IMG/VR virus record: IMGVR_UViG_3300032007_004013
Location: 1 to 64,000 of that record
Length of the DNA stretch: 64,000 nt
Source of the DNA: a virus
Taxonomy: Duplodnaviria; Caudoviricetes
Strand: one strand, 5' to 3'
Part shown: piece after piece, positions 8,555 to 32,777 of the stretch
Position numbering within the stretch: the stretch's first letter is position 1
How the letters are laid out: every line of letters begins with the position of its first letter
Position numbers and translations under genes: made by a program
The notes under the pieces: model-generated
The model's database searches: none
What the model was told of the DNA's origin: nothing
What the model saw: only the letters and a program-made list of their open reading frames with translations

Positions 8555-8557
8555 TAT

Positions 8558-9132: not shown

Positions 9133-9134
9133 GC

Positions 9135-9437: not shown

Positions 9438-9500
9438 GTGTTTTTTGAAAATTTCCAGAAATATTTTTCAACTGTTTTCGTATGTGTTAATGACGCAGAC

Positions 9501-9530: not shown

Positions 9531-9533
9531 TGA

Positions 9534-9986: not shown

Positions 9987-10016
9987 GTCACCACCTCCTG
10001 TTAATACTTCAACAAA

Positions 10017-10045
10017 AGTATAACACGAGCGTGAACTGTTGTCAA
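10017..10045 (-). promoter_or_regulatory. sigma70 promoter of the HTH gene
   Basis: TTGACA-N17-TATACT with extended TG. Confidence 0.8.
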
Positions 10046-10063
10046 TATTTTCAGGACTTAACA

Positions 10064-10429: not shown

Positions 10430-10441
10430 GGTAATACCTCC

Positions 10442-10855
10442 TTATACATCATCTGCTTTGCGGTGGTTAGCGTCGTATGCGTTGAAGCCATTCGGGTAGC
10501 GCTTCAGGTGTTTGTCAATGTTCATCTGCATGATTTCATCGAGATCGTAGCCGAAGCTGTGGCACATACACGCTACATACCACATGATATCGCCGATCTC
10601 TTTCTTCAGATGTGTTTCGTCAAGCTTGCTTTCGTGGAAAATCCACTTCTTAACCATATCGACCGTTTCTCCGACTTCTCCGGATAAACCGAGGCAAGCG
10701 TTAAGGATTCCGCCGAGATCTTTGATCGCCTTTTTATCCCAACCGGGAATATCGGGATTGAAACCGTGGTATGACATGAGTTTGTCAGCAAGCCTCTCTG
10801 CGCTTTTTCCGTCGTTTGTCCTCATAGCGAGCTTTGTATATTCTTTTCCTGTCAT
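10442..10855 (-). CDS. MazG-like NTP pyrophosphohydrolase
   Basis: LGLSGEVGETVDMVKK...EIGDIMWY...NIDK...RYPNGF (ExxE..ExxD all-alpha NTP-PPase motif). Confidence 0.88.
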   Translation of the reverse strand: MTGKEYTKLAMRTNDGKSAERLADKLMSYHGFNPDIPGWDKKAIKDLGGILNACLGLSGEVGETVDMVKKWIFHESKLDETHLKKEIGDIMWYVACMCHSFGYDLDEIMQMNIDKHLKRYPNGFNAYDANHRKADDV

Positions 10856-10902
10856 TTCTTTTTCTCCTTTTTACTCTGCTTAGTTTGTGTGAACGGCTTA
10901 AC

Positions 10903-11181
10903 TCAGTTGAGATAGCCGCCGAACTGTCTGAACTCAGTGATCGCTTCCTCTGTGCCAACAACAGCCTTATTGATTTTGTCTGCTCTTTCGCGCATTTCCC
11001 ATTTGAAAGCGCCTACGCAGCAGCGGAGGAACTTCTTAACCTTGTCACGCTTTCTCGGCGCGATCTGTCCTCTGTGGAACATGCCGTTGGCGATAACCCA
11101 CATATCCATATCGCCGTTTCCGTACATCTTGATGAATCCGTTTTTGCGGATGATTCTGATTTCCTGATTCTTGCTTTTCAT
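10903..11181 (-). CDS. hypothetical protein
   Basis: 92-aa ORF with GGAGG RBS. Confidence 0.6.
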   Translation of the reverse strand: MKSKNQEIRIIRKNGFIKMYGNGDMDMWVIANGMFHRGQIAPRKRDKVKKFLRCCVGAFKWEMRERADKINKAVVGTEEAITEFRQFGGYLN

Positions 11182-11182
11182 T

Positions 11183-11482
11183 TCATTTTACCTCCATGTA
11201 TTGTTTTCTTGCTATGTCGCATAAATCTCTTAACTCACAAAAAATGCAAATCGAACCTTTCGTGAGAATTAAACACCTGTTGCAAAGCGGCTTGATGGAA
11301 TCCAGCGCATCCATAGCCATACGCGTAGCGGTGGCAAGCTTTTCATCACCTTGAAACTTATCTGCATATTCTGCGTTGGCGAGCTGTTCAACAGCTTCTT
11401 TTGTTGTCATCTTAATAGCGTATCTTTGCGGTTTATGATGTCTGTATTTATTCTGATTCAATTTACCATTCCCTTTCTGCAA
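11183..11482 (-). CDS. hypothetical protein
   Basis: ORF with C-terminal CxxC pairs; likely start MTTKEA. Confidence 0.6.
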   Translation of the reverse strand: MQKGNGKLNQNKYRHHKPQRYAIKMTTKEAVEQLANAEYADKFQGDEKLATATRMAMDALDSIKPLCNRCLILTKGSICIFCELRDLCDIARKQYMEVK

Positions 11483-11846
11483 GCAATGCTATGATGTATG
11501 CCATTTCAGCAGCGTGTTCCCAATCACCGCTTTCGCAATCCATTTCCCAAGCTGCATACACCCCATCAGAGAAATTGTTCTCCTTAGAATAATCGCTTGT
11601 ATAGATGCACATATACTCATGTGCTGTGCTTTCAAATTCAATAGGGCAACACGCACACTCCGAATGATCTCCCGGAAAGTCCATCGAGAATTGGCAGCAA
11701 AAGCAATCGTTCAGTATGTCAAATGACTGCCTTCCGCAGCTTATTTGGTACTCTGCTTTGCTAACGCACCTTTTCTGCTTTTGAGTTTCTTCTGCTATCC
11801 ATTTCCACATTTTTCTGTGGTTTTCGATAGCTTCTTGTTTTGTCAT
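11463..11846 (-). CDS. Cys-rich phage hypothetical protein
   Basis: EAIENHRKMWKWIA...CFCC...CACCPI pattern. Confidence 0.7.
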   Translation of the reverse strand: MTKQEAIENHRKMWKWIAEETQKQKRCVSKAEYQISCGRQSFDILNDCFCCQFSMDFPGDHSECACCPIEFESTAHEYMCIYTSDYSKENNFSDGVYAAWEMDCESGDWEHAAEMAYIIALLAEREW

Positions 11847-11954
11847 AAATGTCTCCTTTTACTCACAAGAGCCGCCGCACTCGGCTCAATGCAAGTCATA
11901 TATTAAATTTTCAAGAAGGAATATATAAAGGTGTGCGGTCCCTTTATATCGCTG

Positions 11955-12437
11955 TTAGCGAGCCGTTACATGCTCAAGAAGCGAATTGTAGAGCATTTTG
12001 TATGTTTCAAGTGCGCTTTCAAGCTGTGTGATTTTATGATTCGCCTCGCCGAGTTCTTTGTCTCGCTCTGCAAATACATCGTTCTCGATTGCCATAGACA
12101 GCGTATTCAGTTGCAGGCTTTCCGTGATCGCTATATCAATCATCGACAACTCTTGTGACGAGCAAACGCCAAACAGATCTCCGATTCTATCTACAGAAAC
12201 GGTAGTTACCTGTTCGCAGAGAGCAGTCGATACTTTTCCTGTTGTGCGGATGACAACGTGCGTAGGCATATCGCGCTTAGGCTGAGTAGTCAGATAGACA
12301 ACCTCTACCGTTGATGATGTTCTGTTGAGCACGTCGTTTGAAACAATAACCGCCGGGCGACCTGCTTCCTGCTCGCTTCCGGTGAATCCGTAGCCGCCTT
12401 TGGCGATATAGTAGATTTCTCCTCTTTTTACATCCAA
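11955..12437 (-). CDS. PemK/MazF-like endoribonuclease with C-terminal coiled coil
   Basis: RGEIYY...GSEQ..GRPAVIVSND..N...V.V..LTT...EQVTTVS..RI; catalytic Arg and Thr positions retained. Confidence 0.88.
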   Translation of the reverse strand: MDVKRGEIYYIAKGGYGFTGSEQEAGRPAVIVSNDVLNRTSSTVEVVYLTTQPKRDMPTHVVIRTTGKVSTALCEQVTTVSVDRIGDLFGVCSSQELSMIDIAITESLQLNTLSMAIENDVFAERDKELGEANHKITQLESALETYKMLYNSLLEHVTAR

Positions 12438-12449
12438 GATTCTTACCTC

Positions 12450-12965
12450 CTAAAATACTTTTATCTTTCTTACTACAATTTCGTAGTGATATTCCCAATT
12501 GTCTTGATGTCCGATGAACACTATAATGCTTGTTCTTCCGAACTCTTCGATTTCGCCAGAGAACCGGTTTCTCACCATGTCTTGCCTGCTTTTATAAAAA
12601 CGGTAATCTTCGTTTTCTTCATCCAGAACAGAGGTTTGTTCCTCGTCTGCTGTTTTGATTCTTTCGATAAACCAACCGAGCGCTTCGTCAACAGTCTTCT
12701 TTATTTCCAAATCGCTTACAGCTCCTGCTTCTGTTCCGCAGCCGTTGTAGTTTTCTTCACAGCAAAGATACAAATAACCGCCGTTAGCTTTGATGCTGAG
12801 GAACTCTCTAAGGCTCGAAAAATCCATCTGGAAATGTTCAAGAACGGATTCCGTGATGATTTCATCATCCTTCTTCAAGATCTGCTGTGTTACTCCGGAT
12901 AGGATATCGTCTTCCCACGTGTAATCAACCTTCGATTCGAGGTTGTAGCCGATATTGTCACTCAT
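12450..12965 (-). CDS. hypothetical acidic protein
   Basis: 171-aa ORF, overlaps upstream gene by 4 nt. Confidence 0.7.
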   Translation of the reverse strand: MSDNIGYNLESKVDYTWEDDILSGVTQQILKKDDEIITESVLEHFQMDFSSLREFLSIKANGGYLYLCCEENYNGCGTEAGAVSDLEIKKTVDEALGWFIERIKTADEEQTSVLDEENEDYRFYKSRQDMVRNRFSGEIEEFGRTSIIVFIGHQDNWEYHYEIVVRKIKVF

Positions 12966-13372
12966 TCTTGCTCCTCCTCTGTGATGAGATGCTTTCGTTT
13001 CGCCGTCTCGTAGATTGCATACGTTTCGTCGAAACAGTAGTTATCAAGGAAATTCTGCAAATCTACACCTTTTTGTTCATTGAGATAATCAATCTCTTCA
13101 AGCGTTGCAAGCAGCCAATCTATTGGAACAACGAACCGTTTGCAGTGGTATTCATCGTCATCTGGAAATGTGCAAAGATCAATGTACCCTCCTGCCAGCC
13201 AGCGAATGCAGTCTTCGCAAGTGTCAAAACCTTCTGTCCAAGCGTCTCCGCTTTTGTTGTCGATTCCAACATATTGTCCATTCTCTATCGTGTAGAACAA
13301 TCCAATCGGCTTTCTCGTTCTCACTATTTCAAGCGCTTCTTTTGCTGTAACGGATTTCACTTCGCATTTCAT
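12962..13372 (-). CDS. hypothetical protein
   Basis: 136-aa ORF; GIDN..GDAWTE.F motif. Confidence 0.7.
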   Translation of the reverse strand: MKCEVKSVTAKEALEIVRTRKPIGLFYTIENGQYVGIDNKSGDAWTEGFDTCEDCIRWLAGGYIDLCTFPDDDEYHCKRFVVPIDWLLATLEEIDYLNEQKGVDLQNFLDNYCFDETYAIYETAKRKHLITEEEQE

Positions 13373-13782
13373 CCGTAAACCACCTCGCCGAAGATCGCAA
13401 ACTGAACGATCACGTCTGCTGCAATAGCATCAATCTGTCCAGCGTCGATCGCGCCGTTTGCAATCCAATCTTCTCCGTAGCCATCTTCGAGAGCAAGAGC
13501 CACGCCTTTGATGAAGCCGTCAAGCGTGAGGATATAGCTTTCTCCTTCTTCAAAATCATGGATTCTGAGGCTTCCTCCTCTTGAAATCTGCTCGTGAGCA
13601 TATTCGCCGTAATACTCGTTCTCTACGACATCTACTTTGTTGCACCAATACGTGATGCCGCCTTCAAGCGCCGAACACATAATATCGTCGATGTCTGTTT
13701 TGCTCAACAAGGCAGTTTCTGTCTTTTCTACTCTGTAATCTCCTGATAACAATTTCGTTATCTTAACATCAATGTGCGCCAT
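13369..13782 (-). CDS. conserved hypothetical protein
   Basis: ALEGGI.YW...ID...AD.IVQFAIFGEVVYG pattern; AGGAG RBS. Confidence 0.75.
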   Translation of the reverse strand: MAHIDVKITKLLSGDYRVEKTETALLSKTDIDDIMCSALEGGITYWCNKVDVVENEYYGEYAHEQISRGGSLRIHDFEEGESYILTLDGFIKGVALALEDGYGEDWIANGAIDAGQIDAIAADVIVQFAIFGEVVYG

Positions 13783-13806
13783 AATTATTCTCCTTTATGT
13801 ATTCCT

Positions 13807-13829
13807 TCCGCCTGCACACGGCAGGCGGA
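13807..13829 (-). promoter_or_regulatory. DGR target-recognition hairpin downstream of VR2
   Basis: Perfect 9-bp stem TCCGCCTGC/GCAGGCGGA, loop CGTGT on the coding strand, 28 nt 3' of the TR-homologous end. Confidence 0.8.
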
Positions 13830-13843
13830 TAACAGATCATAGA

Positions 13844-14554
13844 TTAAGCAAACAAGAAGCCGAACGACACGCCAATCGAGTTGCTCGCGAAGTTGTTGTA
13901 CTCGCTGCCGTTGTTGTAGACAAGCGCAAAGTTAGTGGTGTTGGACGACCACGGGGAGCGCAGGGAATACCACGCTGTTTCTCCGTCGATTTGCTTCACT
14001 CTGCTTTTCTCGTCGTTGAACAGATCAAAGTGAACATCTCCGACATCAACCGAATTGTTGCCGCCGAATACTTCCGTTCTCGAAAGCAGCCAGATATCGT
14101 CTTCAGATCTCAGCTCTTCGCCGCGATGGTTCTGCACGATAATCCTTGTTCTGATATGCTCCTTGAGGTCGTCGGGGAGGAGGGGATAAATCTTATCTTT
14201 CAGGTAAGTTCTCATATCGCTGTCGCGCCAGCCGCCTTTGTTTGTGCATTCCTCGTTCATAACGTGTCTGTCAGGAAGACAATCCTTCAAGACGAGCACC
14301 GCTTCGTTTTCTCCGTAAGGGTTGATGTGTGCGACAACAAAAGTAACTTTCGTGCCGTCCTTGAGAGCGCACGAGATTTCATCACCGACAAGGATTTCTC
14401 CAGAACATGATTTGATTTCTTCTGCGATCTCTACCCACGTCGAAAAGCTCTCGACTTTCTGCGTGAGTGTTACTGTATCAGGTTTCTTCTTCACCTCCTC
14501 AATAGTCACCTTCATGTTTTTGCCGCAGTCAGGGCATTTGATAATCATTTCCAT
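13844..14554 (-). CDS. Second (remote) DGR target: CxxC zinc ribbon plus DUF6273/C-type-lectin-like domain
   Basis: GGW..S.MR..L...LRSP...GVSFGF pattern, paralogous to the C-terminal domain of 26112..32777; 3' end matches TR. Confidence 0.9.
   Translation of the reverse strand: MEMIIKCPDCGKNMKVTIEEVKKKPDTVTLTQKVESFSTWVEIAEEIKSCSGEILVGDEISCALKDGTKVTFVVAHINPYGENEAVLVLKDCLPDRHVMNEECTNKGGWRDSDMRTYLKDKIYPLLPDDLKEHIRTRIIVQNHRGEELRSEDDIWLLSRTEVFGGNNSVDVGDVHFDLFNDEKSRVKQIDGETAWYSLRSPWSSNTTNFALVYNNGSEYNNFASNSIGVSFGFLFA
13858..13963 (-). repeat. DGR variable repeat VR2
   Basis: 106-bp match to TR 25442..25547 with 8 mismatches, all at TR adenines. Confidence 0.95.
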
Positions 14555-14558
14555 TGTG

Positions 14559-15074
14559 TTAAGCTCCTTTCTTTAATACGCCGTGTGTCCACGCGCCGTT
14601 GTATGTTCCTACCTCTCCGTGCATATCAAGCAGAATATCTCGGATAGCGTCGAGGTATCTACGGTAATGTCCAATCTGAAGACCGACAAGTTCATTGCCA
14701 CCCCATTTGTCTTCCTTCTGAATCAACTCGATTGCCAAGCTCCACTCATTGTCTTCGCAGACGATGTAAAACAAGCTGTTTTCGAGGAGCGCTCTTCTAT
14801 CGCGCGAAATCCATTTGTTCACGCGCTCAAGGCTTTTGAATCTTTCGAGCATCTTTTCTGTGAATTCATACTCGAAATCGTGCCGCCGGAAGTAGCTTTC
14901 GCATTCATCCCATTCGCACATGTCGAAGTCGAAACCGTCGTCTCTCGGAGTAATGAACATGTCTTCGGGTTCGTCGCTTTCGCAATCTTTTCTTTTATAC
15001 ACGTCCAAGAAGTCGTTATCAACGTAATACAATCCTTCGGCTTCATTGAATGTGCAGCAGTTTCCTCTACCCAT
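14559..15074 (-). CDS. hypothetical protein
   Basis: 171-aa ORF; MGRGN start, abuts neighbours. Confidence 0.75.
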   Translation of the reverse strand: MGRGNCCTFNEAEGLYYVDNDFLDVYKRKDCESDEPEDMFITPRDDGFDFDMCEWDECESYFRRHDFEYEFTEKMLERFKSLERVNKWISRDRRALLENSLFYIVCEDNEWSLAIELIQKEDKWGGNELVGLQIGHYRRYLDAIRDILLDMHGEVGTYNGAWTHGVLKKGA

Positions 15075-15247
15075 TACTTAACCTCCTCTACTTTGAATTC
15101 TGCTCCTGCGAAGTGGTCTGCGTCGAGAATATACTCTCCTGAATACCAAGCATCTTCTACCGCTTGTTTAGCTTCACAGGCGCTTTCTGATTCAACCGTT
15201 ACGGTCATTTCAAGCCTTTCGATTATTTTGACTTGATATTCTTTCAT
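15074..15247 (-). CDS. DpnD/PcfM-like small protein (57 aa, not in ORF track)
   Basis: Read manually: MKEYQVKIIERLEMTVTVESESACEAKQAVEDAWYSGEYILDADHFAGAEF; matches the family pattern from memory; GGAGG RBS. Confidence 0.65.
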   Translation of the reverse strand: MKEYQVKIIERLEMTVTVESESACEAKQAVEDAWYSGEYILDADHFAGAEFKVEEVK

Positions 15248-15256
15248 TTTGACCTC

Positions 15257-15595
15257 CTAATATCTTACAAGGAACATACCGTTGTGTTCTGCTTCGATGT
15301 AGCTTATTCCGTAGATCTCGCAGCTGCAATCGCCGCACCCGTTTTCGTCATAGAACGCTTTAATTTCATCGTAGTGTTCTTCGCCATCGCGGATAACATC
15401 GCACCAATTAACATAATCGTTGTCAGCTATTGCCATGACGTTGAACTCTGAGCCTTCAAAGCATCCTCCGTAAACGTAGTTCTCATACATCTTTTCGTAG
15501 AGAGCGATCACATCTTCGTCGTTTGTCCATACTGCGATTCTATTGACAAGAGAATCTATCATTTCTTCTGCATCGATTTCAACAGATACCATCAT
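15257..15595 (-). CDS. hypothetical acidic protein
   Basis: 112-aa ORF with GGAGG RBS. Confidence 0.7.
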   Translation of the reverse strand: MMVSVEIDAEEMIDSLVNRIAVWTNDEDVIALYEKMYENYVYGGCFEGSEFNVMAIADNDYVNWCDVIRDGEEHYDEIKAFYDENGCGDCSCEIYGISYIEAEHNGMFLVRY

Positions 15596-15601
15596 AAAAT
15601 A

Positions 15602-15916
15602 TCACCTCCTGTGAAGAGCATAGATCACTTCGTTCCTTACTGCATTTGTCCTTTTGTAGAACTCTTCATCATCGAGAGCAAGCATATAAAATCTTACTTC
15701 CGTAAGGACTGATCTTTTGTTACCGTCTTCGTCTGTCCGATCGGAATAAACTTTCGCTCCGTAGATAACGTGTTCTGCTCCTGTTTCTTCCAGAGCCTGC
15801 TTTGCTTGCTTCTCGAATCGTTGAAGCTGACCTTCTACCTCAGACTTTAGGATGTAGCCGCTTGCAAATGCTCCGATTTCGTTCCATTGTGTCCATCTTA
15901 CAAACGCGTCAGCCAT
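15602..15916 (-). CDS. hypothetical protein
   Basis: 104-aa ORF with AGGAG RBS. Confidence 0.7.
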   Translation of the reverse strand: MADAFVRWTQWNEIGAFASGYILKSEVEGQLQRFEKQAKQALEETGAEHVIYGAKVYSDRTDEDGNKRSVLTEVRFYMLALDDEEFYKRTNAVRNEVIYALHRR

Positions 15917-15927
15917 TTTATCACTCC

Positions 15928-16254
15928 TTAAATCTGGTATTCGTGCTTGATAAATCTCAGTTCGTAGTGAGATATTTCTTCATCTGTAAGCCTATGGTTG
16001 TAAACAATGATGTCGTAGAACTCTCCCGTTTCGTCATCAAGACGTTCGATCAATCCTCCTTTCGGTTGGCATCCGATGGAGAAACCTCTTTCTGACATTC
16101 CGTACCAAAATCGGATAAGAGCGTACTGCTCTTCAAACCTCAACAGGTTCGTGGGGTCATCTCCGTCGTATTTATCTCGCCATTGCTTTTTGGCTGCCGC
16201 TTCAGTAAGCAGTTCTTGCGTATCTCTATTGAGGTACTCTCTTTCATAACTCAT
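15928..16254 (-). CDS. DarA C-terminal-like domain protein
   Basis: YGMSERGFSIGCQPKGG...YDIIVY...LTDEEI..YEL resembles the defence-against-restriction A C-terminal (DarA_C) consensus. Confidence 0.6.
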   Translation of the reverse strand: MSYEREYLNRDTQELLTEAAAKKQWRDKYDGDDPTNLLRFEEQYALIRFWYGMSERGFSIGCQPKGGLIERLDDETGEFYDIIVYNHRLTDEEISHYELRFIKHEYQI

Positions 16255-16775
16255 TTTTCAACCTCCTGCATTTCTATGAGAGCTTCCATGATGTCCTGCA
16301 TTTTCATCTCTCGCCTGATGGCAAGCTTGCGAGCTTTAACAGCTTCTCTGAACTCAAGGGTATCAGGTGTTTCAGCCAAATCGAGGATCTTGTTCGCTTC
16401 TGCTGTTTGCTGTGAAGCAGCTTTCTTATTCTCATTGAGAACGAGGACCTTCAGATGCTCGATATACTCATGGCTGAGAACTTTTCCTCTAACCAAAGCA
16501 ACCTCTTTCATTGCATCATCGAGCTTTGCAGTGAGGTCGTCTACACTTTCCATGAGCGACTTTACTCGTTCTGCCATCTTTTCGTTCGCTTTTCTCGCAG
16601 ACTCAAGATCGGACTTGAATGAACAGCCGAAATCGTTGTTGATGTTATCCTCTGCTCTCTCAAAGCAGCCTTCAAATGCCATCCCGATGTAGCTTCCTTC
16701 TCCGAGATCATCTACGATCTTCTTGATCTTTTCGAGAGCTTTTCGCTCCTGTTCTTTTGTTGCAATCATTAACAA
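16251..16775 (-). CDS. hypothetical coiled-coil protein
   Basis: 174 aa; ATKEQERKALEKIKKIV..LGE.SY N-terminus. Confidence 0.75.
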   Translation of the reverse strand: MLMIATKEQERKALEKIKKIVDDLGEGSYIGMAFEGCFERAEDNINNDFGCSFKSDLESARKANEKMAERVKSLMESVDDLTAKLDDAMKEVALVRGKVLSHEYIEHLKVLVLNENKKAASQQTAEANKILDLAETPDTLEFREAVKARKLAIRREMKMQDIMEALIEMQEVEK

Positions 16776-16819
16776 TCACTCCTTAAAAGTTACTGAACAG
16801 TAATCGCAAGATAAAAGAT

Positions 16820-17098
16820 TCAAACGTAAACGATGTCGTCGTCATCAAACAATCTGTAATCTTCATCTATTGAGTTCATTCCGCCATCCCACTCAAAATA
16901 ACCATCAACAATATCTCCTGTTGCGATGTACTCTTCGTCGTTTCCACTAATGCCGTTTATCGCACACCATAATTGGCAAGCGCCTATCGTGTTGCCTACA
17001 GCAAGTTCGTTTCCGTATTTGTCAAATACAATGGCAATGTCTTCAAGGTTTCTGTATTCTTCTTTGTTAGTCGCGTAAATCTTTTTCATGTCATCCAC
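16820..17098 (-). CDS. hypothetical protein
   Basis: First ORF after the promoter at 17145..17174. Confidence 0.7.
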   Translation of the reverse strand: MDDMKKIYATNKEEYRNLEDIAIVFDKYGNELAVGNTIGACQLWCAINGISGNDEEYIATGDIVDGYFEWDGGMNSIDEDYRLFDDDDIVYV

Positions 17099-17144
17099 CT
17101 TGTCCTTTACTGTTTGGTTTGTTTTGGTGTTTTATTGTAACTAT

Positions 17145-17174
17145 ATCTTACCACATAGTAACTCATTGCGTCAA
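17145..17174 (-). promoter_or_regulatory. sigma70-type early promoter
   Basis: TTGACG-N18-TAAGAT with TGTGG. Confidence 0.8.
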
Positions 17175-17223
17175 GCGTTTTTGAAAAGTTTTTGAAAAAT
17201 ATTTCAGAAGTTTACAGAATGGT

Positions 17224-17706
17224 TTACAGATAGAATCTCTTGTACCTTAGATGTGCTATCTCGATGAACTCTGACATATCGGAGTCGGGGCATGTCATAC
17301 AAGGGTAGCTGTGTCTGCTTGCGTTTCCTGTATCGACAATACACACCCCATATCTTTGTCTCGCTTTGCTGTCAAATACAGCTACTGCGATTTGCGAGTT
17401 TGGCTTCACAATGGGAGATGAAGCTGCATTGACGCTGTTTACAAAGTCGAAGTATTCGTAGTCTGACGTGATTCCATACGTTTCCGGCATGAAATAGATC
17501 TCCTTTGTACTTATTGACGCTCTCAGCGTAGATGCTTGCAGAATCCTATCTCCTTTGGGGGAAACGCCGATATCAATACGGCATTGACTTCCAATGAGAC
17601 CGCATCCGTCGCACTTCGACAGGTCGATTTTAAGTACAGGATATTTGCCGAAATTAAGCGCTTTGGCTATATCTTTTTGGCTCGACAAGAACTTCAAACA
17701 AATCAC
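17224..17706 (-). CDS. hypothetical protein
   Basis: 160-aa ORF with AGGAG RBS. Confidence 0.7.
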   Translation of the reverse strand: MICLKFLSSQKDIAKALNFGKYPVLKIDLSKCDGCGLIGSQCRIDIGVSPKGDRILQASTLRASISTKEIYFMPETYGITSDYEYFDFVNSVNAASSPIVKPNSQIAVAVFDSKARQRYGVCIVDTGNASRHSYPCMTCPDSDMSEFIEIAHLRYKRFYL

Positions 17707-17709
17707 TCC

Positions 17710-18339
17710 TTAAAAAATAAACTTAATACCAGCGTCCTCAAATGTCTTGAAGATGCTTTCTTCTACAGATTTCACTGTACAGTAATCGATGCTGTCTTCG
17801 TCATCTGTGATGATAGACAATCCGAGAATTTCAGCATACTCCTTCATCACATCAAACAGACGGTATTCAACATCATCAAACGCTGTGATGTCAAGCGCTG
17901 CAAGATTGATCGGGCGAGAGGGGATAATCAAATCGCAATCATTTCCGTACCTCGCGACTTTGTTCATCTCTTCATATTTCGGTGTATCTATCAGAATATA
18001 AACGCCGTATGGCGTTGCCATAGACACATCTTTTTCAGAGATGAACTTTGGCGGCTTGCCGTTATCATAATGTGCGTAATTCTTTTTACACTCTTCTTCA
18101 GTGCAGTCATCAATATACTGCGTGATCTCCTCTTGAAACTCTCCTTCGTAGCACGAGATACCGTACTTTAAAGCTTTCTCTAAATCAACTATGAAACCGG
18201 TGTACTCGCAGAATCTAAACGGAGTTTCCGACGAATCATAAGCGTACCAGCTATACGCATAGTAGTGAATAACCTTTCTGCCATCTTGCTTTTCAATGCT
18301 GATGATTGTTCTATCTATGACATCGCTTATATCAAACAT
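17710..18339 (-). CDS. hypothetical acidic protein
   Basis: 209-aa ORF with GGAGG RBS. Confidence 0.75.
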   Translation of the reverse strand: MFDISDVIDRTIISIEKQDGRKVIHYYAYSWYAYDSSETPFRFCEYTGFIVDLEKALKYGISCYEGEFQEEITQYIDDCTEEECKKNYAHYDNGKPPKFISEKDVSMATPYGVYILIDTPKYEEMNKVARYGNDCDLIIPSRPINLAALDITAFDDVEYRLFDVMKEYAEILGLSIITDDEDSIDYCTVKSVEESIFKTFEDAGIKFIF

Positions 18340-19993: not shown

Positions 19994-20038
19994 AAAAAAA
20001 TCCCCTACCAACAGCTGTATAAGCCGTCGATAGGGGAT
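19994..20038 (-). terminator. Rho-independent terminator of the lysis operon
   Basis: TCCCCTA...TAGGGGA stem with G-U pairs followed by a T7 run on the minus strand. Confidence 0.8.
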
Positions 20039-23607: not shown

Positions 23608-24079
23608 CCTCGCTCATTTCCAGCAAGCAATCCTCAAGAAACTCGATACGTTCGTCCTTTACGGCGCTTGACATCTCAAGCTCTGTAATGCGTTCATCTT
23701 TGGCTGTGCTCGATGCTTCAAGCTCAGTGATTCTGAAACGCATTTGCTCGATAGTCATTACCTGTGTTCCGCTATCTTCTTGCGGTTCATCTTGAGGTTC
23801 AGGCTCAGGCTCGTCAAGTTGGAGAACGAGCATTTCATAATCTGCTTCGGCGATCACCTTTGCGGTAACGCCTGTTTTTGTCGCTCCTTCCGGCATCTGG
23901 TTTCTTCCGTCAAGCTGATAAATATGCTCTCCGTTTTTCGACACAATTCCTTGCGCTCTGAGCCTTGAGCAACTCTCAACAAGACGGTTCTTTTCCTGCC
24001 ACCTGACAAAATCAGGAGTTTCGAGAGCTTCAACCGCTACGACAGTATCGCTGCCGTCAACTAACTTGATATAAACCAT
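23588..24079 (-). CDS. hypothetical tail-region protein
   Basis: 163 aa; C-terminal LEDCLLEMSEVVYA pattern typical of genes preceding XkdX-like genes. Confidence 0.7.
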   Translation of the reverse strand: MVYIKLVDGSDTVVAVEALETPDFVRWQEKNRLVESCSRLRAQGIVSKNGEHIYQLDGRNQMPEGATKTGVTAKVIAEADYEMLVLQLDEPEPEPQDEPQEDSGTQVMTIEQMRFRITELEASSTAKDERITELEMSSAVKDERIEFLEDCLLEMSEVVYADD

Positions 24080-25211
24080 ACGATTCCTCTCTTTCCGCCT
24101 GACGTAGCAGGCTGTTGTAAAGTGCTGTCATATTATTGCGTGTATGCCACGCATTGAAGCGAAGCGAATAGCCGTACCAGCTTTGATAGGATTGGTAGAT
24201 AGCGTGAAACGGAACAAGACGGTTTCTCCACCGCTTAAAAAGCTTTTTCAACCTCTTCCGGCAGCGTTTAATACTCGCCTTGCATATTTTTCTGACAACC
24301 TTTCCGTTCTTCGTCAGAAAGAACCTAACTTTCAGCCAAGTAAATCCGTGACTAAGCTTCACAATCTGCGTTTTCTTCTTGTTGAGCTTTATGTCAAGGA
24401 TTCTGCAAATCTCTGCTATAGCTTTCTGAACTTTTATCAAACGCTGTTTAGATATGTCGGTCATTACACCGTCATCCATATATCTCTCGAACAGCTTGAT
24501 AATCAACTTTTCTTTGATTTCGTGGTCGAGATCATTTGCCGAAGCAAGAGCGAGGATTTGACTGATCTGACTACCTAAGCCAAGACCAACCTCTCCGAAC
24601 GCGTCGATAAAATGCGAAGTTAGCTTAAAGAGCCGTTCATCGGACAGTTCGTTCCGAATAATTCTCTTAACAAGCTTGTGCGATACGTTGTCGAAGAACT
24701 TCGAGAAGTCAAACAACAAAGCATATCCGCTGTTTCCGTACTTTCTGTAATGCCTTCTGAGTTGTTCTGTAACGCGCTTTATCGCAAAATCATAGCCTTT
24801 GTCTTTCATTGAAGCGCCGTTATCGTAGATAAACGTCCTACCGAGAGCAGGAACAAGGCAAAAGTCGCACAGACAACGCTGCACAACTCTCTCGTCAATA
24901 ACAGTCGATCGAATATGCCTTTTCTTTCCTCTCTCGAATAGGTCAAATTCAAAGAATCCGGGACTTTTGTACTTTCCATTCCTGAGCTTCTTGAGCGTAG
25001 TGTACACGTTCAGCGAAGCGAACAGACAATACTTCTGAACGCTCGATTTCCACGTTACGTTTCTTCTGCATCTTTTGTAGGAAACGTAAAGGTGCTTGAA
25101 CGTAAACACTTTGTCGAAATCATCAACATTTTCAAGTGCTTTCTGCTTCTTTGCTATCCTTCTCTCTTTTCGGCGCTGGTATCGATTTTCTTTCCTATCT
25201 TCGCTTGTCAT
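24057..25211 (-). CDS. DGR reverse transcriptase
   Basis: GLGLGSQISQ and RYMDD motifs, ERGKKRHI..IDERVVQ; start at MTSED after AGGAG (384 aa). Confidence 0.96.
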   Translation of the reverse strand: MTSEDRKENRYQRRKERRIAKKQKALENVDDFDKVFTFKHLYVSYKRCRRNVTWKSSVQKYCLFASLNVYTTLKKLRNGKYKSPGFFEFDLFERGKKRHIRSTVIDERVVQRCLCDFCLVPALGRTFIYDNGASMKDKGYDFAIKRVTEQLRRHYRKYGNSGYALLFDFSKFFDNVSHKLVKRIIRNELSDERLFKLTSHFIDAFGEVGLGLGSQISQILALASANDLDHEIKEKLIIKLFERYMDDGVMTDISKQRLIKVQKAIAEICRILDIKLNKKKTQIVKLSHGFTWLKVRFFLTKNGKVVRKICKASIKRCRKRLKKLFKRWRNRLVPFHAIYQSYQSWYGYSLRFNAWHTRNNMTALYNSLLRQAEREESYGLYQVS

Positions 25212-25441
25212 ATAATCTCCTTTGCGAGCGTGTATGTCTGAGTTGAGGGTTGGTGTAGACACATAGCGATGCAGGGCATTAAACGCGGAATAACCCACAA
25301 TCCGCGCAATGCAAGCAGCGTCCGCCCTGACGCATCACGTCGCTTATTCACCTTGCAGGCTTGCGCCTGCTCGGAAGGTCATGTTCTCCTTCTCTCCACT
25401 TGGTCTGATTTCCCTATTGGTACTCTGTCTGCCTTGAGAGG

Positions 25442-25569
25442 AGCCGAACGACACGCCATTCGAGTTGCTCGCGTTGTTGTTGTTCTCGTTGCCGTTGTTG
25501 TTGACATTCGCAAAGTTAGTGGTGTTGGACGACCACGGGGAGCGCAGCCACCAATTGTTGGCGGAACCG
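25442..25569 (-). repeat. DGR template repeat (TR)
   Basis: 128 bp, 34 adenines (15 AAY codons), between avd and RT. Confidence 0.96.
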
Positions 25570-26070: not shown

Positions 26071-26099
26071 ATATCTCGCTACACACGGTAGCGAGATAT
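26071..26099 (-). promoter_or_regulatory. DGR target-recognition hairpin downstream of VR1
   Basis: Perfect 12-bp stem ATATCTCGCTAC/GTAGCGAGATAT, loop CGTGT, 26 nt 3' of the TR-homologous end. Confidence 0.82.
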
Positions 26100-26111: not shown

Positions 26112-29100
26112 TTAGGCAAGTGAGAAGCCGAACGACACGCCATACGAGTCGCTCGCGACGTTGCTGTACTCGTAGCCGTTGCTGGTGACAATCGCAAAGT
26201 TAGTGGTGTTGGACGACCACGGGGAGCGCAGCCACCAATTGTCGGCGGAACCGGTGCCGTTGTAATACTTCTTGATTCTCGAATTATTGTCCGTGAATAA
26301 GGAACACTTCAAGTCCTCTGCTTCTGAATCAACCTCGTACATATACGGATTCTCAGCTGTTCTGAAGCCGACCTCTGCCATAGAACGGAGGTACAGCCAA
26401 TCCTCTGAACTGATGATGTTAGCGGAAGTGTTACCTTGCGATGACAAGACAATAACCTTCGCGATCATCGTTTTCCAGTGTCTCGGCAATTCAGGGAAAG
26501 CGGTGTTGTTCAGCCAATTTCTCATAGCACAATCGCGCCAGCCGCCAACATTTGTGTTTCCGCTGTTCATCTGTCTTGTGGCGTTCATAATGCCGAGCAT
26601 ACCGAACGAAACAGGAGCGAAGTTTCCGCTGTTGTCAGCCAACTTGTAGTGGCTAAAGTGCTCTACGCGAAGTATGATTTCCGTGTCAGCAAACTTATTG
26701 GTCGAAACAAGAATTTTCACCTTGTCACCTTTGCTGAAGAAGTCTTTGCACCTGTTCGCTTTGATGATTCCGTAGAACTCAGCAAGCGTATATGCGCTGT
26801 TGTCGTTCGGGTTGTCACTGAACAGGTAATCGTAGGACACAGGTACGGAGCTGGGAAGGGTAGGAGTGATATACTGAGCATGAATATCCATGTCACTTAC
26901 GACGTTTACAGCTGCATTGTCGAATCCCATCCAGATTGTGCCTGCCGGACCTGAGAGATCATTTCCTTCGTAATCGCAGCTTCCGTGTGTTTCAACGTTG
27001 TGCGTTTCGAGGAGTGTCGAGCCGTCGTAATACCTGACTACAAATATTCTCGTGCTGCGGTTATAAGTAGCGGTCAACGTTGTGTTCGCGTTGATGTTTT
27101 CAAGCGAGCCGTTCCAACCTGTAAACGTGTACTGATAATCTACAGTAGGCGTTTTGGTCGGCGTTTGGATTGCGCCGGAAGCTACAGGATTGACAGCATT
27201 GTTTCCTGCTCTTACAGTTTCTGTGTAAAGAGTTGTGCCGTCATCATTAACGAACGTGACTGTATAAGTTTCGACTATCTGATCGTAGTCGAAGGTGAGG
27301 TAGGGGAAAGCTGCGATAAGCGTCCTGATTTCGTCCTCGGTAATCTTGTTGATATGAGCGTAACCGCTGAGGAAGAATGAGCCTGCTTCTTCAATCGGAT
27401 TTCCTTCTGCGTCGATACCTTTCAAGGTTGCAAGACGAGTAAGCACGTCAGCGTCAGCAAACGACCAATTCACATTTGTGATTCGTCCTCTAATGAGGTT
27501 GGGCGCGTTAGCTACAAGCGTATCAGAAGGAACGCCGGGGCTGTCTTCTACCAAAATCGTTGTCAAGCTGTTTCCTGCACACGAGAAATTCGCTGACGTA
27601 AGGTTAGGAAGATTTCTTGCGTGAAGCGTTCTGACATTCGTTCCGAGAATCGCTTTCCTCAAGATCTTGCTTTGCGGCAGATAAACGTCTGTAGTGCCTG
27701 TTCCTGCAATCATCACTTCTTCAAGAAGGTTGCAGCGTGTCAGATTGAGCGCGCCTGAGATGCCACTTTGTCCTCTAAGGTCAATGACTCTCAAAAGAGG
27801 AACATTAGGCTTATCTGCCGGGTTTAGTGCAAGGCTTTTGAGGTTGCTTGAACTGTAGGTTTCTCCGCCGAGCAGAAGATCGCGCAGCTTTTCGCCGTTA
27901 GTGATATTGACCTGACCGGGATAGAGGTTGGCTGCTCCTCCAACGTGCATAAGATTTCTGCCGTTGAACAGCTGAACATTGACCTCACCTGCTGACAAGA
28001 CAAACGGATCTCCGTTACCGTCAAGGCACTGGACAATAGCGGTTTCGCCCTTTGTCATTCTTCTGCTTCCTGCCGGAGTGTTATCTCTGAGGAATCCGAC
28101 GTACATATCGCTGTATGGCGTAAGTTCGAGTGCTGACGAGAAGTTTGCTCCGGGCATCGCCTGATATGTAATCAGATCGCTTTTCGCTTTGGCACTGACA
28201 TATTTGGAGGATATGAACAGCTCTCTGTATGTGATAAACTGTTCACGCTGAGGTCTTTTCTCACCGTGCTCCATGTTCTCCATCCAGCTTGTGTTTCCTG
28301 CGTTTTCGATCGGCGCGTCGTACTTGCCTGCGTAGTCTTCGATAACGAGAGCTTCAGGGCGCTGGCGCTGATATTCGTCGAAGAACTCAATCAAAGTTTC
28401 TGCATCAAACAGTTTGCGGTTTTCGTAAACGCTGTACGCAACTGCAAGCTCGTTCTGGAAGCAATCTCTTACGTTGCAGAACAGTACACTTTCCGCCGCG
28501 TTGAAGTACGGGTGCGTGTTGCCGTCTTCTTCGTCAGTGTAGCCGTCTGTATCTTCGATGCTGTAGGCTTCACCCCATCTGAACTGTCCTTTGTTGTCAA
28601 TACCGAGAATTGTATCTCCGTCGTAATACTTGCTCAGGTTCCAACGCCATACATCGTTTTCGTCAGGCTCGTAGGAAAGGAACATGTTTTTCGCTCTCTG
28701 ATCTACGCCGAGGAAGAACTCAGTGAACAGGTAGTAGTACAGCAGATTATCGAGATTGAAGTAGTCGCCCACCTCTCTCTTGAACTTCGCTCTGCGGTAT
28801 GCAGCTGTATCTCTGACGTGGATATCAAATCTGTCGCTGACATCGAGCGTTTCGTTTGTTGCCTGTTCGGGGTCAGTTGAGTTCACCCAATGGTGCATTT
28901 CAATGAAGCGGTCCTTCATGGCCTGAGTGCCTTCGCCATCAGGGTATCTGAACTCAAAATGAGAGGGAAGATCGGTTCCATCTTCCTTCCAACCTTCGTT
29001 CTCGAAATCGCTCGTCTTAAACGTGCAGCGCGTGTAGGTGTTCTCGCGGAACTCTATGCAGCACTGCTGATGGTTTTCGTCGTCCCACTGACTTGTCTGA

Positions 29101-32100
29101 CCGAATACTTCCGTATTCTTCTTGCTGTTGTTCATGTCTCCTGCAAAGTACAGGATAGTTTCGTCGGGCGCAAGCGTTCTTGCGCCGTTTACGCCGAGAA
29201 GCAGAGGTCTGTTGCTTGTGTTCTTGATGAACACAGCACACGGATGTCCTTCAACAGAATCTCTGCACTTGCTGTTCACGCTTTTCGCCTTTGAGACAAG
29301 CGGATTGAAAGCATTAAACAGCTCTGCCGAACACACGTTGTTGCAATGCTCTGATGAAGCTACATTCGCCTTCAGATTGAAATACTTCACAGGGATAGAG
29401 TTCGCAGACATCGCGTAGCCGTTAAGGATTGCGTCGGTGCTTGAAACCTTCATCGTGGTCTTCTTCATGTTGATATCGAGGTTTCCTGCACATTGACGGT
29501 AGTTCATAGAGCTTGTACCCTGCAAGGTGTAGAAAGCGTTATCAGCGTACCACTGATCTTCCGCAACGCCGTTGCCGATTTGGTGGATAATCTTACAGCT
29601 TGTGTTGCCGCCGCTTCCTTTATCTCCGGGGAATCCGCCTGTTTCGATCGTGATGATGTGGAGGGCAGGCGCTGCTACCATCAGCTTTTCAATGCTGATC
29701 GTGCCGTCGCTGTTGTAGATGTCGTTTCTCTCGTATCTTGCAAGCATTTCATCTACGTTTGGAGCGTCAGCGATGAAGTTCTGCATGATTTCTTTATCGA
29801 GAAGCGAAACTCTGTACATCTTGAAGCGATACACCCAAATATCACAGTCAGAGCTTCCGATTACAAAAGCATCGGGATTGCCCTGTACAAACTGCGTTTT
29901 TGTGCTTCCGGTGAGGAACGTGGTTCCTTTTGCAGGAGTTCCTTCAAGCCAAAACTTCATCGAAGATTTTGTCGGGTCGATGTTCAGACACATCTCAACC
30001 TGTCTGTTTTCGCAGTATTGGCATGTGATGTTGTTTCCTGCTCCGAACAATGCGTTGTGAGCGTACAGCTCAATTCCCATTCCGCTGTCATAGGAGTGGG
30101 CGATCTTTGTATCGTAGTTCGTGACGTTGGTTGTCTTGAAAATCATCGACAGGTGTTTACCCGTTCCTGTAACGCCTGTTTCGCCGTTGGTGTTATCACT
30201 TGCAAGGAACAGTGAACGGTCAAACGTGACACTTGTTCCTCTCTTGACTACGAAGGCGACTGCTCCGTTTTCGTCGCGCTGGAATCCGCCGTTATCCCAA
30301 TCAAAGTTCGCGGAATAGGTGAGTGGATGATTCGTTCCGCTGCTGTCTGAGTAACCGAAGTTTGATCTGTTTTCTTCTGAGTTGCTATGACCGGAGGGGT
30401 TCAGGTCCATGATGATTCCATCGGTGATCGGAGAAACATCTATGCCGATGGACTGAACGGTTACATCTATCTTCTTTGACACTGAACCTCTTACGGTAGT
30501 AATGCGAAGCTCTTTGTCGCCGAGAGTGGTCGGGCGGTATGTCCATATCTGAACATCTCTTCCGACGCTCAGACTTGACACAACGGTATTGTCTACTTTC
30601 TGAGTAACTGCGGAAACAGCATTTTCAGGGTCGTAGGCAATCCACTTAATCTCAACATTTTCGTACTGACGTGCAGCAAGTTCGTCCTTGAAGATGGCTA
30701 CAATAGGCGTGTTGTTTCCATCCTCAATCCATACGCCTGTGTGCTCAAGAGTCGGGACTTCGATAAGCTCTCCGTCAATCGTCATACTCATGCTGGCTTC
30801 GATAACGTGAGCGCCGTGAGTCTGAGCAGGTACTTGAATCGTAATAGGTCTGTTGTTGAGCGTAACGCCTTGCTGTGAGTAAACAGATGTGCCGTCTACA
30901 GTTACGGTAATATCTTTGCTACCTGCGCCTGACGGTGTAACTCTCAGTGTAAGCGGCTCACTTCCGTGGAAAGCAATGTCTGCTATATTCCAACTCAACG
31001 CAACATTCGACAAGGTGATCGTCCAAGTGAACGATTTTGTCGTTCCGTAGGCATCCTCTACAGTGAGCTTGACGGTGTTTGTCTCACCTGCAAGGTGAGG
31101 TCTGATATCGAAGCTATGCTGCGCTTGCGTGAGGTTTGTTTCGGTAGCTACGCGGTAATTGTTTACATACCAATACGCAGTACCATTACCTTGCGTAGGC
31201 TGGTTTGTATCAGCGTCAAGGCTCACCCACGACCAAAGCAAATTAAACTGCTCTGTTGTGGTGAGAACAGTCAACCTCGCTGACTGCATACCGTTGGTGA
31301 TTCTAACCTTTGAATCGGCAGCAGTACCGCTCCCGCTTCCGGCAGGAATGTCGAACGGTGTAAATCCTTCGATATCCTGATCGTTCAGCGTGAGGTGGAG
31401 CTTTCCGTCCTCGACGTAGCCTGAATCAAAGGCAAGTCCGCCTGTTCCGCTGCCGCTTCCAAGAGGAATCGGGTCGCCTACAGCATGACCGTTGCTGTAC
31501 AGAATCAGGTCGTTGTATTCTTCGTCGATATCAAAGCCGTCGATCAATGTTCTGTTCGACAAGCTGTTAAGGGCTGTAGATATCGCTGATACTGTATTAC
31601 TGAGAGCCGTTACGCTTGCTGTATCTGCTTTTGTCGTCAACTGAGTGTAAATATATGCGATGGCTTTAATCGCCAAATCAGCAGTGTTTCCGGCAGTTCC
31701 GTAATGGGCTGTTACGCCTTGCGGAATGGCTCCGCTATCAATCCTGAAGCTGCCTTCTTCTCTCGCAAAATATACATCAGTGAGATTGGGGCATCCGGCG
31801 AATGAGCCGCCGTCAACGCTCGTTACGTCCTTGTGAACATATATCGTTTTTGCTGTTCCTGAGAAATTGCCTGCCGACAAGGAATTGCCGTTGACAATCT
31901 TTACAGGTACGTTGTTTGCATCGAATCCGACACTCAAACAGTACCCATAGAGTGAAGCTGCATCGCTTGGAGAAATGACTTGCGTTTTGTTAGCTTTTTG
32001 GGCTATGGAAGTTTCAAGCGTGTCAACGATATCGTCAACGTCTTCGGCTGTGTAGTACGCTCTTAAAACAGCATAAACAAAAACCCTAACTGCGTTCGAG

Positions 32101-32777
32101 TTAGGGAAAAGGACATTATCCGCCGTTGTTGTTTGCTTGCTTACTGCGATCTCGCCGGATTTGTGCTCGACTTTCTCATAGGAAGCTGATTCAGCTCGAA
32201 TATCTGCAACCGCCGCGTTCGCTGTGTTCGCTGCCGTGTTTGCTGCGTCTTTTGCGTCTTCTGCATCCTGCACAACAGACGCAAGATCTTCTACAAGGTC
32301 GTTGATTTCATCCTCAGCTTCCGCAATAGCTTGTCTGCTGCTGTCTATCTCAAGAAACGCTCTTGTCAAGGTCGAAAGCTCGTTACTTGACTGTACAGAT
32401 GTACTCAACGCTCTCTCTTCAATCCTGAGTTTGCAGTTTGCAGATGACAGCAATGTTCCGTCAGCTTCGCTCGATATGACGAAATCAAGCGTACCTAAGC
32501 CCGGCGCTGCAAGAGCCTGTTCTGACAGCTTCGCTACAGCATATGATCTATCCTGAGCGATCTCGCAGGCATCATCATCCATAACGCTGTAACCATCTGG
32601 CTTTAACACCCTGATCGTCACCTTATGTCCTTCCGGGATAGTAACAGGCGCTTTGTTGTCCGTAAAGCGAACCTTGACATATCTGCTCACATCACACTGC
32701 TTCGCGTACACGATCGCGGTGTTGCTTTTCGCATTAAGGTCAAGCGTCACTTCGGAGATGTATTTCATCTCTGCCAT
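26112..32777 (-). CDS. Large tail adhesin / DGR target (BppU-like N-terminus, Ig/LamG-like, CotH-kinase-like, LRR, InlB-B/Flg_new repeats, C-terminal DUF6273/C-type-lectin-like domain)
   Basis: 2221 aa; AKQCDVSR..V..KPDG (BppU); YTVTFVN.DG..L....V...FTGW repeats; VR1 at the 3' end. Confidence 0.85.
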   Translation of the reverse strand: MAEMKYISEVTLDLNAKSNTAIVYAKQCDVSRYVKVRFTDNKAPVTIPEGHKVTIRVLKPDGYSVMDDDACEIAQDRSYAVAKLSEQALAAPGLGTLDFVISSEADGTLLSSANCKLRIEERALSTSVQSSNELSTLTRAFLEIDSSRQAIAEAEDEINDLVEDLASVVQDAEDAKDAANTAANTANAAVADIRAESASYEKVEHKSGEIAVSKQTTTADNVLFPNSNAVRVFVYAVLRAYYTAEDVDDIVDTLETSIAQKANKTQVISPSDAASLYGYCLSVGFDANNVPVKIVNGNSLSAGNFSGTAKTIYVHKDVTSVDGGSFAGCPNLTDVYFAREEGSFRIDSGAIPQGVTAHYGTAGNTADLAIKAIAYIYTQLTTKADTASVTALSNTVSAISTALNSLSNRTLIDGFDIDEEYNDLILYSNGHAVGDPIPLGSGSGTGGLAFDSGYVEDGKLHLTLNDQDIEGFTPFDIPAGSGSGTAADSKVRITNGMQSARLTVLTTTEQFNLLWSWVSLDADTNQPTQGNGTAYWYVNNYRVATETNLTQAQHSFDIRPHLAGETNTVKLTVEDAYGTTKSFTWTITLSNVALSWNIADIAFHGSEPLTLRVTPSGAGSKDITVTVDGTSVYSQQGVTLNNRPITIQVPAQTHGAHVIEASMSMTIDGELIEVPTLEHTGVWIEDGNNTPIVAIFKDELAARQYENVEIKWIAYDPENAVSAVTQKVDNTVVSSLSVGRDVQIWTYRPTTLGDKELRITTVRGSVSKKIDVTVQSIGIDVSPITDGIIMDLNPSGHSNSEENRSNFGYSDSSGTNHPLTYSANFDWDNGGFQRDENGAVAFVVKRGTSVTFDRSLFLASDNTNGETGVTGTGKHLSMIFKTTNVTNYDTKIAHSYDSGMGIELYAHNALFGAGNNITCQYCENRQVEMCLNIDPTKSSMKFWLEGTPAKGTTFLTGSTKTQFVQGNPDAFVIGSSDCDIWVYRFKMYRVSLLDKEIMQNFIADAPNVDEMLARYERNDIYNSDGTISIEKLMVAAPALHIITIETGGFPGDKGSGGNTSCKIIHQIGNGVAEDQWYADNAFYTLQGTSSMNYRQCAGNLDINMKKTTMKVSSTDAILNGYAMSANSIPVKYFNLKANVASSEHCNNVCSAELFNAFNPLVSKAKSVNSKCRDSVEGHPCAVFIKNTSNRPLLLGVNGARTLAPDETILYFAGDMNNSKKNTEVFGQTSQWDDENHQQCCIEFRENTYTRCTFKTSDFENEGWKEDGTDLPSHFEFRYPDGEGTQAMKDRFIEMHHWVNSTDPEQATNETLDVSDRFDIHVRDTAAYRRAKFKREVGDYFNLDNLLYYYLFTEFFLGVDQRAKNMFLSYEPDENDVWRWNLSKYYDGDTILGIDNKGQFRWGEAYSIEDTDGYTDEEDGNTHPYFNAAESVLFCNVRDCFQNELAVAYSVYENRKLFDAETLIEFFDEYQRQRPEALVIEDYAGKYDAPIENAGNTSWMENMEHGEKRPQREQFITYRELFISSKYVSAKAKSDLITYQAMPGANFSSALELTPYSDMYVGFLRDNTPAGSRRMTKGETAIVQCLDGNGDPFVLSAGEVNVQLFNGRNLMHVGGAANLYPGQVNITNGEKLRDLLLGGETYSSSNLKSLALNPADKPNVPLLRVIDLRGQSGISGALNLTRCNLLEEVMIAGTGTTDVYLPQSKILRKAILGTNVRTLHARNLPNLTSANFSCAGNSLTTILVEDSPGVPSDTLVANAPNLIRGRITNVNWSFADADVLTRLATLKGIDAEGNPIEEAGSFFLSGYAHINKITEDEIRTLIAAFPYLTFDYDQIVETYTVTFVNDDGTTLYTETVRAGNNAVNPVASGAIQTPTKTPTVDYQYTFTGWNGSLENINANTTLTATYNRSTRIFVVRYYDGSTLLETHNVETHGSCDYEGNDLSGPAGTIWMGFDNAAVNVVSDMDIHAQYITPTLPSSVPVSYDYLFSDNPNDNSAYTLAEFYGIIKANRCKDFFSKGDKVKILVSTNKFADTEIILRVEHFSHYKLADNSGNFAPVSFGMLGIMNATRQMNSGNTNVGGWRDCAMRNWLNNTAFPELPRHWKTMIAKVIVLSSQGNTSANIISSEDWLYLRSMAEVGFRTAENPYMYEVDSEAEDLKCSLFTDNNSRIKKYYNGTGSADNWWLRSPWSSNTTNFAIVTSNGYEYSNVASDSYGVSFGFSLA
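26126..26253 (-). repeat. DGR variable repeat VR1
   Basis: 128-bp match to TR with 11 mismatches, all at TR adenines. Confidence 0.96.

Follow-up and report, generated by a model that had tools for sequence, protein, structure and literature searches.

The prophage analysed here carries a single DGR with one template repeat (TR) and two targets that were diversified independently of each other: the gene for a 2221-aa tail adhesin, which has the variable repeat VR1 at its 3' end, and a small stand-alone gene 11.5 kb off, at whose 3' end lies VR2. The best explanation overall, and on balance a probable one, is that VR2 is a working second target of this element and that its product is, as the likeliest of several roles, a soluble hypervariable binder. 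The mechanism of diversification is that of an ordinary DGR with two homing sites; the timing of expression, the cellular location and the ligand of the 236-aa product we infer rather than observe. The window, that is, the whole stretch of 64,000 nt analysed (positions 1 to 64,000 of the 84,019-bp IMG/VR virus record IMGVR_UViG_3300032007_004013), contains the features collected in Table 1.

Table 1. Features of the two-target DGR and of its surroundings
Feature	Position	Strand	Basis or description
Hairpin after VR2	13807..13829	-	Just past the VR2 stop codon; perfect 9-bp stem, CGTGT loop
Small DGR target gene, 236 aa	13844..14554	-	ORF call; Pfam; structure model
VR2	13858..13963	-	TR homology over 106 nt, 8 mismatches, all at TR A
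Sigma-70-type promoter	17142..17174	-	Nearest one upstream of the VR2 gene
Further promoter copies	19772-19804, 9405-9437, 3843-3875	-	Same motif
Strong intrinsic terminator	20000..20038	-	17-bp stem and T-run, after the endolysin; closes the late operon
DGR reverse transcriptase (RT)	24057..25298	-	RVT_1; LGSQISQ and YMDD motifs
RT-2 RNA motif (RF03077)	25204..25437	-	106.8 bits against a gathering score of 40
TR	25442..25569	-	Repeat comparison
Avd-like ORF, 142 aa	25624..26052	-	Position between target 1 and TR; predicted all-helical
Hairpin after VR1	26071..26099	-	Perfect 12-bp stem, CGTGT loop
VR1	26126..26253	-	3' end of the 2221-aa tail adhesin gene (26112..32777)

One template and two variable repeats

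VR2 aligns without gaps to positions 25442-25547 of the TR, and each of its 8 mismatches falls on one of the 30 adenines present in the 106 nt facing it, an outcome with a chance of about 0.283^8 = 4e-5. VR1, compared in the same ungapped manner over 128 nt, differs from the TR at 11 positions, again exclusively adenines (11/11). Only four mutated positions are common to the two, which argues that VR2 was not copied from VR1 and was diversified independently. Read in frame, the TR presents 13 AAY (Asn) codons within the stretch that matches VR2, of which 6 are changed in VR2 and 10 in VR1. Exactly three copies of the repeat (TR, VR1 and VR2) occur in the entire record. The repeat comparison thus upholds what the initial annotation had read from this region: a 106-bp match with 8 mismatches confined to TR adenines, a pattern in VR2 unlike that in VR1, and one template with two independently diversified targets, the second at a distance of 11.5 kb. 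Convergence of VR1 and VR2 on one receptor was considered and rejected, as the two agree at 5 of the 13 variable codons (four unmutated Asn and one Tyr), which is no more than expected by chance.

Both variable repeats end in an IMH-like sequence that differs from the IMH* of the TR: the GC-rich GGCGTGTCGTTCGGCT is followed by TCT in VR1 and VR2 (GGCT-TCT) and by CCT in the TR (GGCT-CCT). Each is also followed by a hairpin, and the role of these elements in homing is putative. VR2 shares in addition 39 nt of perfect 5' homology with the TR. The stems of the two hairpins are unrelated in sequence, their CGTGT loops are identical, and the one after VR2 has no T-run and is not a terminator. Hairpins with unrelated stems and a common loop, here GAAA, also follow VR1 and VR2 of Dulem virus 34 (PP511788.1); since that pair parallels the CGTGT pair of the present prophage, the loop seems to be matched to each phage's own DGR.

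The remainder of the cassette lies beside VR1, and its RT, TR and RT-2 RNA are all intact. The RT matches RVT_1 at 3.3e-12, with protein models that are not specific to the DGR clade. The RT-2 RNA is located directly 3' of the TR, between TR and RT, and overlaps the annotated start of the RT, which suggests that translation probably begins at the ATG at 25211. The Avd-like ORF has no family match in Pfam or NCBIfam, and its single-sequence structure model is all-helical, at low confidence (pLDDT 54.8). In the scheme that we propose, TR RNA together with the adjacent RT-2 RNA structure would be copied by the RT with errors at adenines, and the mutagenised cDNA would replace VR1 or VR2 by homing, presumably directed by the common GC-rich 3' end, the nearby hairpin with its common loop and the 39 nt of perfect 5' homology. 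Up to 13 Asn codons might thereby be randomised on the predicted ligand-binding face of a C-type-lectin-fold (DUF6273) domain.

The 236-aa protein and its genomic setting

The product of the small target gene is a leaderless, acidic (pI 4.9), single-domain protein of 27 kDa, in which a CPDC beta-hairpin (residues 2-17) and a variable linker (about 18-40) precede a DUF6273/C-type-lectin-fold domain (42-236). Pfam assigns DUF6273 (PF19789) at 63.5 bits against a cut-off of 23.5, and an AlphaFold2 model built with 28 homologues reaches pLDDT 90.3 and pTM 0.82. Fold comparison of residues 42-236 returned 9qa6 as the best match (Z 16.8, rmsd 2.1 over 169 residues), followed by TvpA (2y3c, Z 7.7), a B. 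ovatus pilin (4eps, Z 7.4) and many C-type lectin domains at Z 5-6.5. On this high-confidence model the protein is predicted to be a C-type-lectin-fold DGR scaffold with the variable repeat at its C-terminal end. Over its C-terminal 154 residues it shares 42% identity with the tip of the 2221-aa adhesin (E 3e-27), the C-terminus of which also matches Pfam DUF6273. No hydrophobic segment (maximum KD19 0.76), signal peptide or anchor was found in it, nor could an oligomerisation or virion-attachment domain be detected.

In most of these respects the initial annotation described the protein well: the ORF and its 236 residues, the paralogy to the adhesin C-terminus and the absence of both a signal peptide and a tail-anchoring domain all stand. 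The N-terminal zinc ribbon that it proposed does not, since such a ribbon needs two knuckles and the protein has only C7/C10, its remaining cysteines (50, 62, 92 and 103) lying outside any knuckle; Pfam zinc-finger models remain below threshold (CPxCG_zf at 18.4 and Zn_ribbon_5 at 17.5 bits). A single zinc site formed by C7, C10, C92 and H97 was likewise unsupported: C92 accompanies the knuckle in 56 of 58 cases but is also kept where the knuckle is missing. Of 72 close family members, 59 carry the CPDC knuckle, and the linker that follows it is replaced by unrelated sequence in a relative that is otherwise 95% identical (joint at 14389/14496).

In transcription order the record opens with a serine integrase and a repressor on the plus strand (80.7-82.9 kb), followed on the minus strand by a regulator, exonucleases, RecT, a replisome organiser and a DnaC-like loader (75-80 kb), and then by packaging, head and tail genes that include the tape measure, Tal and the 2221-aa adhesin. 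After the adhesin come the Avd-like ORF, the TR and the RT, and then a holin and a 750-aa endolysin (20147-22399, minus strand). The endolysin matches several different endolysin PHROG families along its length, which suggests that it may combine multiple catalytic and binding domains; in the adhesin, residues ~1322-1428 give a borderline match to CotH kinase (23.0 against a cut-off of 23.8 bits, E 6.7e-5). Beyond the terminator that follows the endolysin lies an array of small ORFs, some 19 kb long, that holds the VR2 gene. The array has its own promoter motif, TTGACG-N13-TGTGGTAAGATATA, of sigma-70 type with an extended -10, in four near-identical copies that are all on the minus strand and all inside the array; a search of the entire record found no copy outside it. 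The VR2 gene is the seventh after the promoter ending at 17174. Its transcription unit also contains, three genes upstream, a gene with a DarA_C domain (defence against restriction; 15928..16254, minus strand, 108 aa) and a PemK/MazF-like gene (11955..12437), and a MazG-like gene (10442..10855) occurs in the array downstream of this unit.

The 236-aa protein would accordingly be made from an accessory operon that the terminator sets off from the late operon and that a host-type promoter drives. This agrees with the initial annotation in placing the gene outside the structural operon and under repeated promoters. The further description of its neighbours as early genes is not borne out to the same extent: at the other end of the prophage, at 75-81 kb of the record, lies the canonical early module with its repressor, RecT, exonucleases, replisome organiser and DnaC-like loader, so that early expression could only be presumed. 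In a metatranscriptome run a contig of 152 nt covers 13941-14092, and further contigs fall within the endolysin gene and 23115-23319, too little to speak for transcription or its timing. The layout of the promoter array resembles the host-takeover modules of virulent phages, yet it is found within a prophage that carries an integrase and a repressor. The array also contains a match to the type II hammerhead ribozyme between small genes (2743-2808, minus strand; 45.4 bits against an Rfam gathering score of 37), and a second one just below the gathering score (8555-8619, minus strand; 32.8 bits, E 8e-5 in a 600-nt search).

Conservation of the layout and variation between samples

Searches with tblastn identified small stand-alone homologues in Dulem virus 34, Roseburia phage Shimadzu (orf43) and Acutalibacter phage Fontainebleau, each of which has an RT and the three-copy layout. 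The mismatches of VR2 fall on TR adenines in 14 of 14 cases in Shimadzu, in 14 of 14 in Dulem virus 34 and mostly in Fontainebleau. A tail target, a TR and a remote small DUF6273 target also occur together in a further prophage (L024) and in a complete IMG/VR phage of 46.8 kb (G002). In the former an adhesin-Avd-RT-amidase series is followed 6 kb on by the small target, two genes from the host flank, and in the latter the small target is about 16 kb from the RT. Retention of the remote target in related phages, which the initial annotation had named as a point to check, is seen in these phages. CotJ spore-coat genes adjoin L024, indicating, for that prophage only, a spore-forming Clostridia-type host. 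A megablast search of 9000-24000 against GenBank phages gave no match, and scanning GTDB genome contigs with the family alignment produced 70 pattern matches and no true relative.

The small target stands in a non-structural context in every phage examined, beside Erf, SSB or methyltransferases, between PolI and helicase, or in post-lysis arrays. Its neighbours are a methyltransferase and Erf in Shimadzu; it follows a methyltransferase in Dulem virus 34, lies between PolI and a helicase in Fontainebleau, and precedes Erf/SSB/primase in a further sequence (L023). An ENA scaffold (L025, 2048-2404) retains both DUF6273 targets, with variable repeats 83% identical to each other, together with a mere fragment of an RT and no detectable TR; judged from its sequence, the DGR has decayed here while its targets survive, a situation also reported for some Toutatisviruses. 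There too a DarA_C gene is found near the small target, along with a dUTPase and Lar. The family of small targets comprises at least 72 clusters at 90% identity, and the Atlas clusters with 61-234 members are mostly viral. The present protein conforms to the type of Shimadzu orf43, namely a single-domain protein of ~190-260 aa with a 3' variable repeat, encoded remotely from both the cassette and the structural genes. Overall, the conservation of this layout argues for a selected function of the small protein.

Variation at VR2, another of the points raised initially, was assessed with assembled contigs from other samples and is therefore a comparison between samples. Within the 51 bp of 13882-13932, contigs of two further bovine-gut studies show 17 and 8 differences from the window, against flanks that are about 95-96% identical to it (a divergence of about 3.5%). 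Differences are mostly at TR-adenine positions (14 of the 17), and the three that are not are common to both studies, which would fit a template that differs slightly in those phages. A gap in contig cover at 13885-13928, seen in one run with both flanks covered, was also considered as a break at a heterogeneous variable repeat and set aside, a gap in cover not being evidence.

Possible roles of the small target and comparison with known systems

What the second target does is less evident than how it is diversified. That VR2 might be a relic, a formerly targeted or duplicated domain in which rewriting has ended, could be argued from the small share of its adenines that differ from the TR (8 of 30) and from the decayed scaffold, where both targets outlast all but a remnant of the RT. 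We regard this as highly improbable: the RT and both RNA elements are intact, the 3' homing end, the hairpin and the 5' homology are perfect, and the mismatches are all at adenines, with different variants at these sites in related phages from other samples. A working target leaves room for several roles. We tentatively read the 236-aa protein as a non-virion, soluble hypervariable binder that may act inside the cell, during infection or lysogeny, or once lysis has set it free. A more specific version is plausible, if unlikely as it stands, namely that small leaderless DUF6273 targets are cytoplasmic antibody-like binders, diversified so that they detect or neutralise variable proteins of the host, for instance defence systems. 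The non-structural context throughout, the DarA_C, Lar, methyltransferase and MazG neighbours and the lack of an export signal are compatible with it. A non-structural DGR target among defence-related genes has already been proposed (Benler et al. 2021, PMC8008677). If correct, this would mean that DGRs serve intracellular counter-defence besides adsorption; an intracellular function would widen the known use of DGRs in phages, a matter that this locus alone does not decide.

The protein could instead be a virion-associated accessory adhesin or receptor-binding subunit that docks on tail or capsid through its N-terminal hairpin and linker, so that the particle gains a second, independently evolving binding specificity. 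All phage DGR targets of demonstrated function are, to our knowledge, virion proteins that bind receptors, and the domain considered here is paralogous to the tip of the tail adhesin and fed by the same template. Virion proteins, moreover, are likewise without signal peptides, and their genes may lie outside structural modules; for the former reason a missing signal peptide cannot tell a cytoplasmic from a virion protein. DarA_C is a family known from a virion (capsid)-packaged protein of phage P1, and its occurrence in the same operon raises the possibility that the array encodes packaged proteins; a weak PHROG match of the 236-aa protein to Hoc-like head decoration (E 3.7e-4) points in the same direction. 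Receptor binding is also what published authors mostly guess for small DUF6273 targets (PMC10743442; bioRxiv 10.1101/2024.10.15.618418), including a conjectured Mtd-like role for the small DUF6273 tgt2 proteins in the tentaclin paper (PMC10743442). On the other hand, the gene is outside the structural module in every phage examined, and here it stands behind a terminator and under a host-type promoter; no domain for oligomerisation or attachment is detectable; and the N-terminal segment on which docking would depend is not conserved across the family, the CPDC knuckle being missing from the Shimadzu, Dulem and Fontainebleau homologues. We therefore consider an accessory adhesin possible but rather unlikely.

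An improbable third role is that of a moron-type factor that acts outside the cell, having been expressed from the prophage or set free at lysis. There it might cover receptors on debris or on cells nearby, or attach to glycans of the gut or rumen, and so benefit phage or host. Lysogenic-conversion genes of Firmicutes prophages classically lie between the lysis genes and the prophage end, which is where the gene is found here, and in L024 it is only two genes from the host flank. The host sigma-70-type promoter would suit such a factor, and phage DUF6273 "tentaclin" proteins are reported from the secretome of Faecalibacterium lysogens (preprint 10.64898/2026.05.08.723808). However, the protein has neither signal peptide nor anchor, lysogens are unlikely to express constitutively a 19-kb array that includes a PemK/MazF-like toxin, and the homologue of Shimadzu-type phages belongs to a replication operon.

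The 236-aa protein can be compared with several known systems. Mtd of Bordetella phage BPP-1 is a protein of 381 aa whose beta-prism and beta-sandwich domains trimerise and dock on the tail fibres, and its gene is the sole target, within the DGR cassette. The 236-aa protein resembles it as a C-type-lectin-fold variable protein with a C-terminal variable repeat, an IMH and a downstream hairpin (needed for homing in BPP-1), but in the structure model residues 1-41 contain no Mtd-like beta-prism or beta-sandwich, and only a 17-residue hairpin and a linker precede the lectin fold. The best structural match, and the only solved DUF6273 structure found, is the N-terminal DUF6273 of the Thomasclavelia ramosa IgA peptidase (PDB 9qa6; PMC12402451); unlike the present protein, this domain forms part of a bacterial protease that is secreted and anchored to the cell wall, and it is no DGR target. 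The second target of the Quimbyviridae (PMC8008677), compared for layout only, is likewise distal, outside the structural module and beside methyltransferases and defence-related genes, but these are Bacteroides phages and their target is expressed from the opposite strand.

Closer parallels are provided by the Faecalibacterium phages Lelie and CP11, with their "large and small" DUF6273 targets (PMC11792537), and by Toutatisvirus, with a remote core-gene target 17.5 kb from the TR (bioRxiv 10.1101/2024.10.15.618418). In these, too, one TR serves a large and a small DUF6273 target, the variable repeat is at the DUF6273 C-terminus, the second target lies as far as 17.5 kb from the TR, and some relatives keep both targets after loss of the DGR, as L025 does. 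They differ in their human-gut Faecalibacterium hosts, as against a bovine-gut Clostridia-type host here, and Toutatisvirus has a Hoc-like/tentaclin protein as its near target where the present prophage has the 2221-aa tail adhesin. The nearest counterpart is Shimadzu orf43 (LR596903.1), which encodes a small stand-alone homologue with DUF6273 (28.8% identity over 92%, E 4e-11). The variable repeat is at its 3' end, at a distance of about 14 kb from the TR, which serves a tail gene as well; mismatches fall at adenines only, the neighbours are non-structural and a hairpin follows the variable repeat. Its VR2 is rewritten in culture, where 2% of reads have 10-15 mismatches, and in mice (Cornuault et al., bioRxiv 10.1101/575076 / ISME J 2020), so that diversification is experimental there and deduced here from the comparison between samples. 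Shimadzu is, however, a 45-kb myovirus with orf43 in its replication operon and without the N-terminal CPDC knuckle, whereas the present gene belongs to a post-lysis accessory array of an 84-kb siphovirus-type prophage. The layout has thus already been published for other gut phages, and the prophage described here adds a clean and complete example from the rumen. A tail adhesin and a small free-standing lectin-fold target served by one template, with the small protein among non-structural genes, is a recurring pattern that now covers both myoviruses and siphoviruses, with hosts among Lachnospiraceae, Oscillospiraceae and rumen Clostridia-type bacteria.
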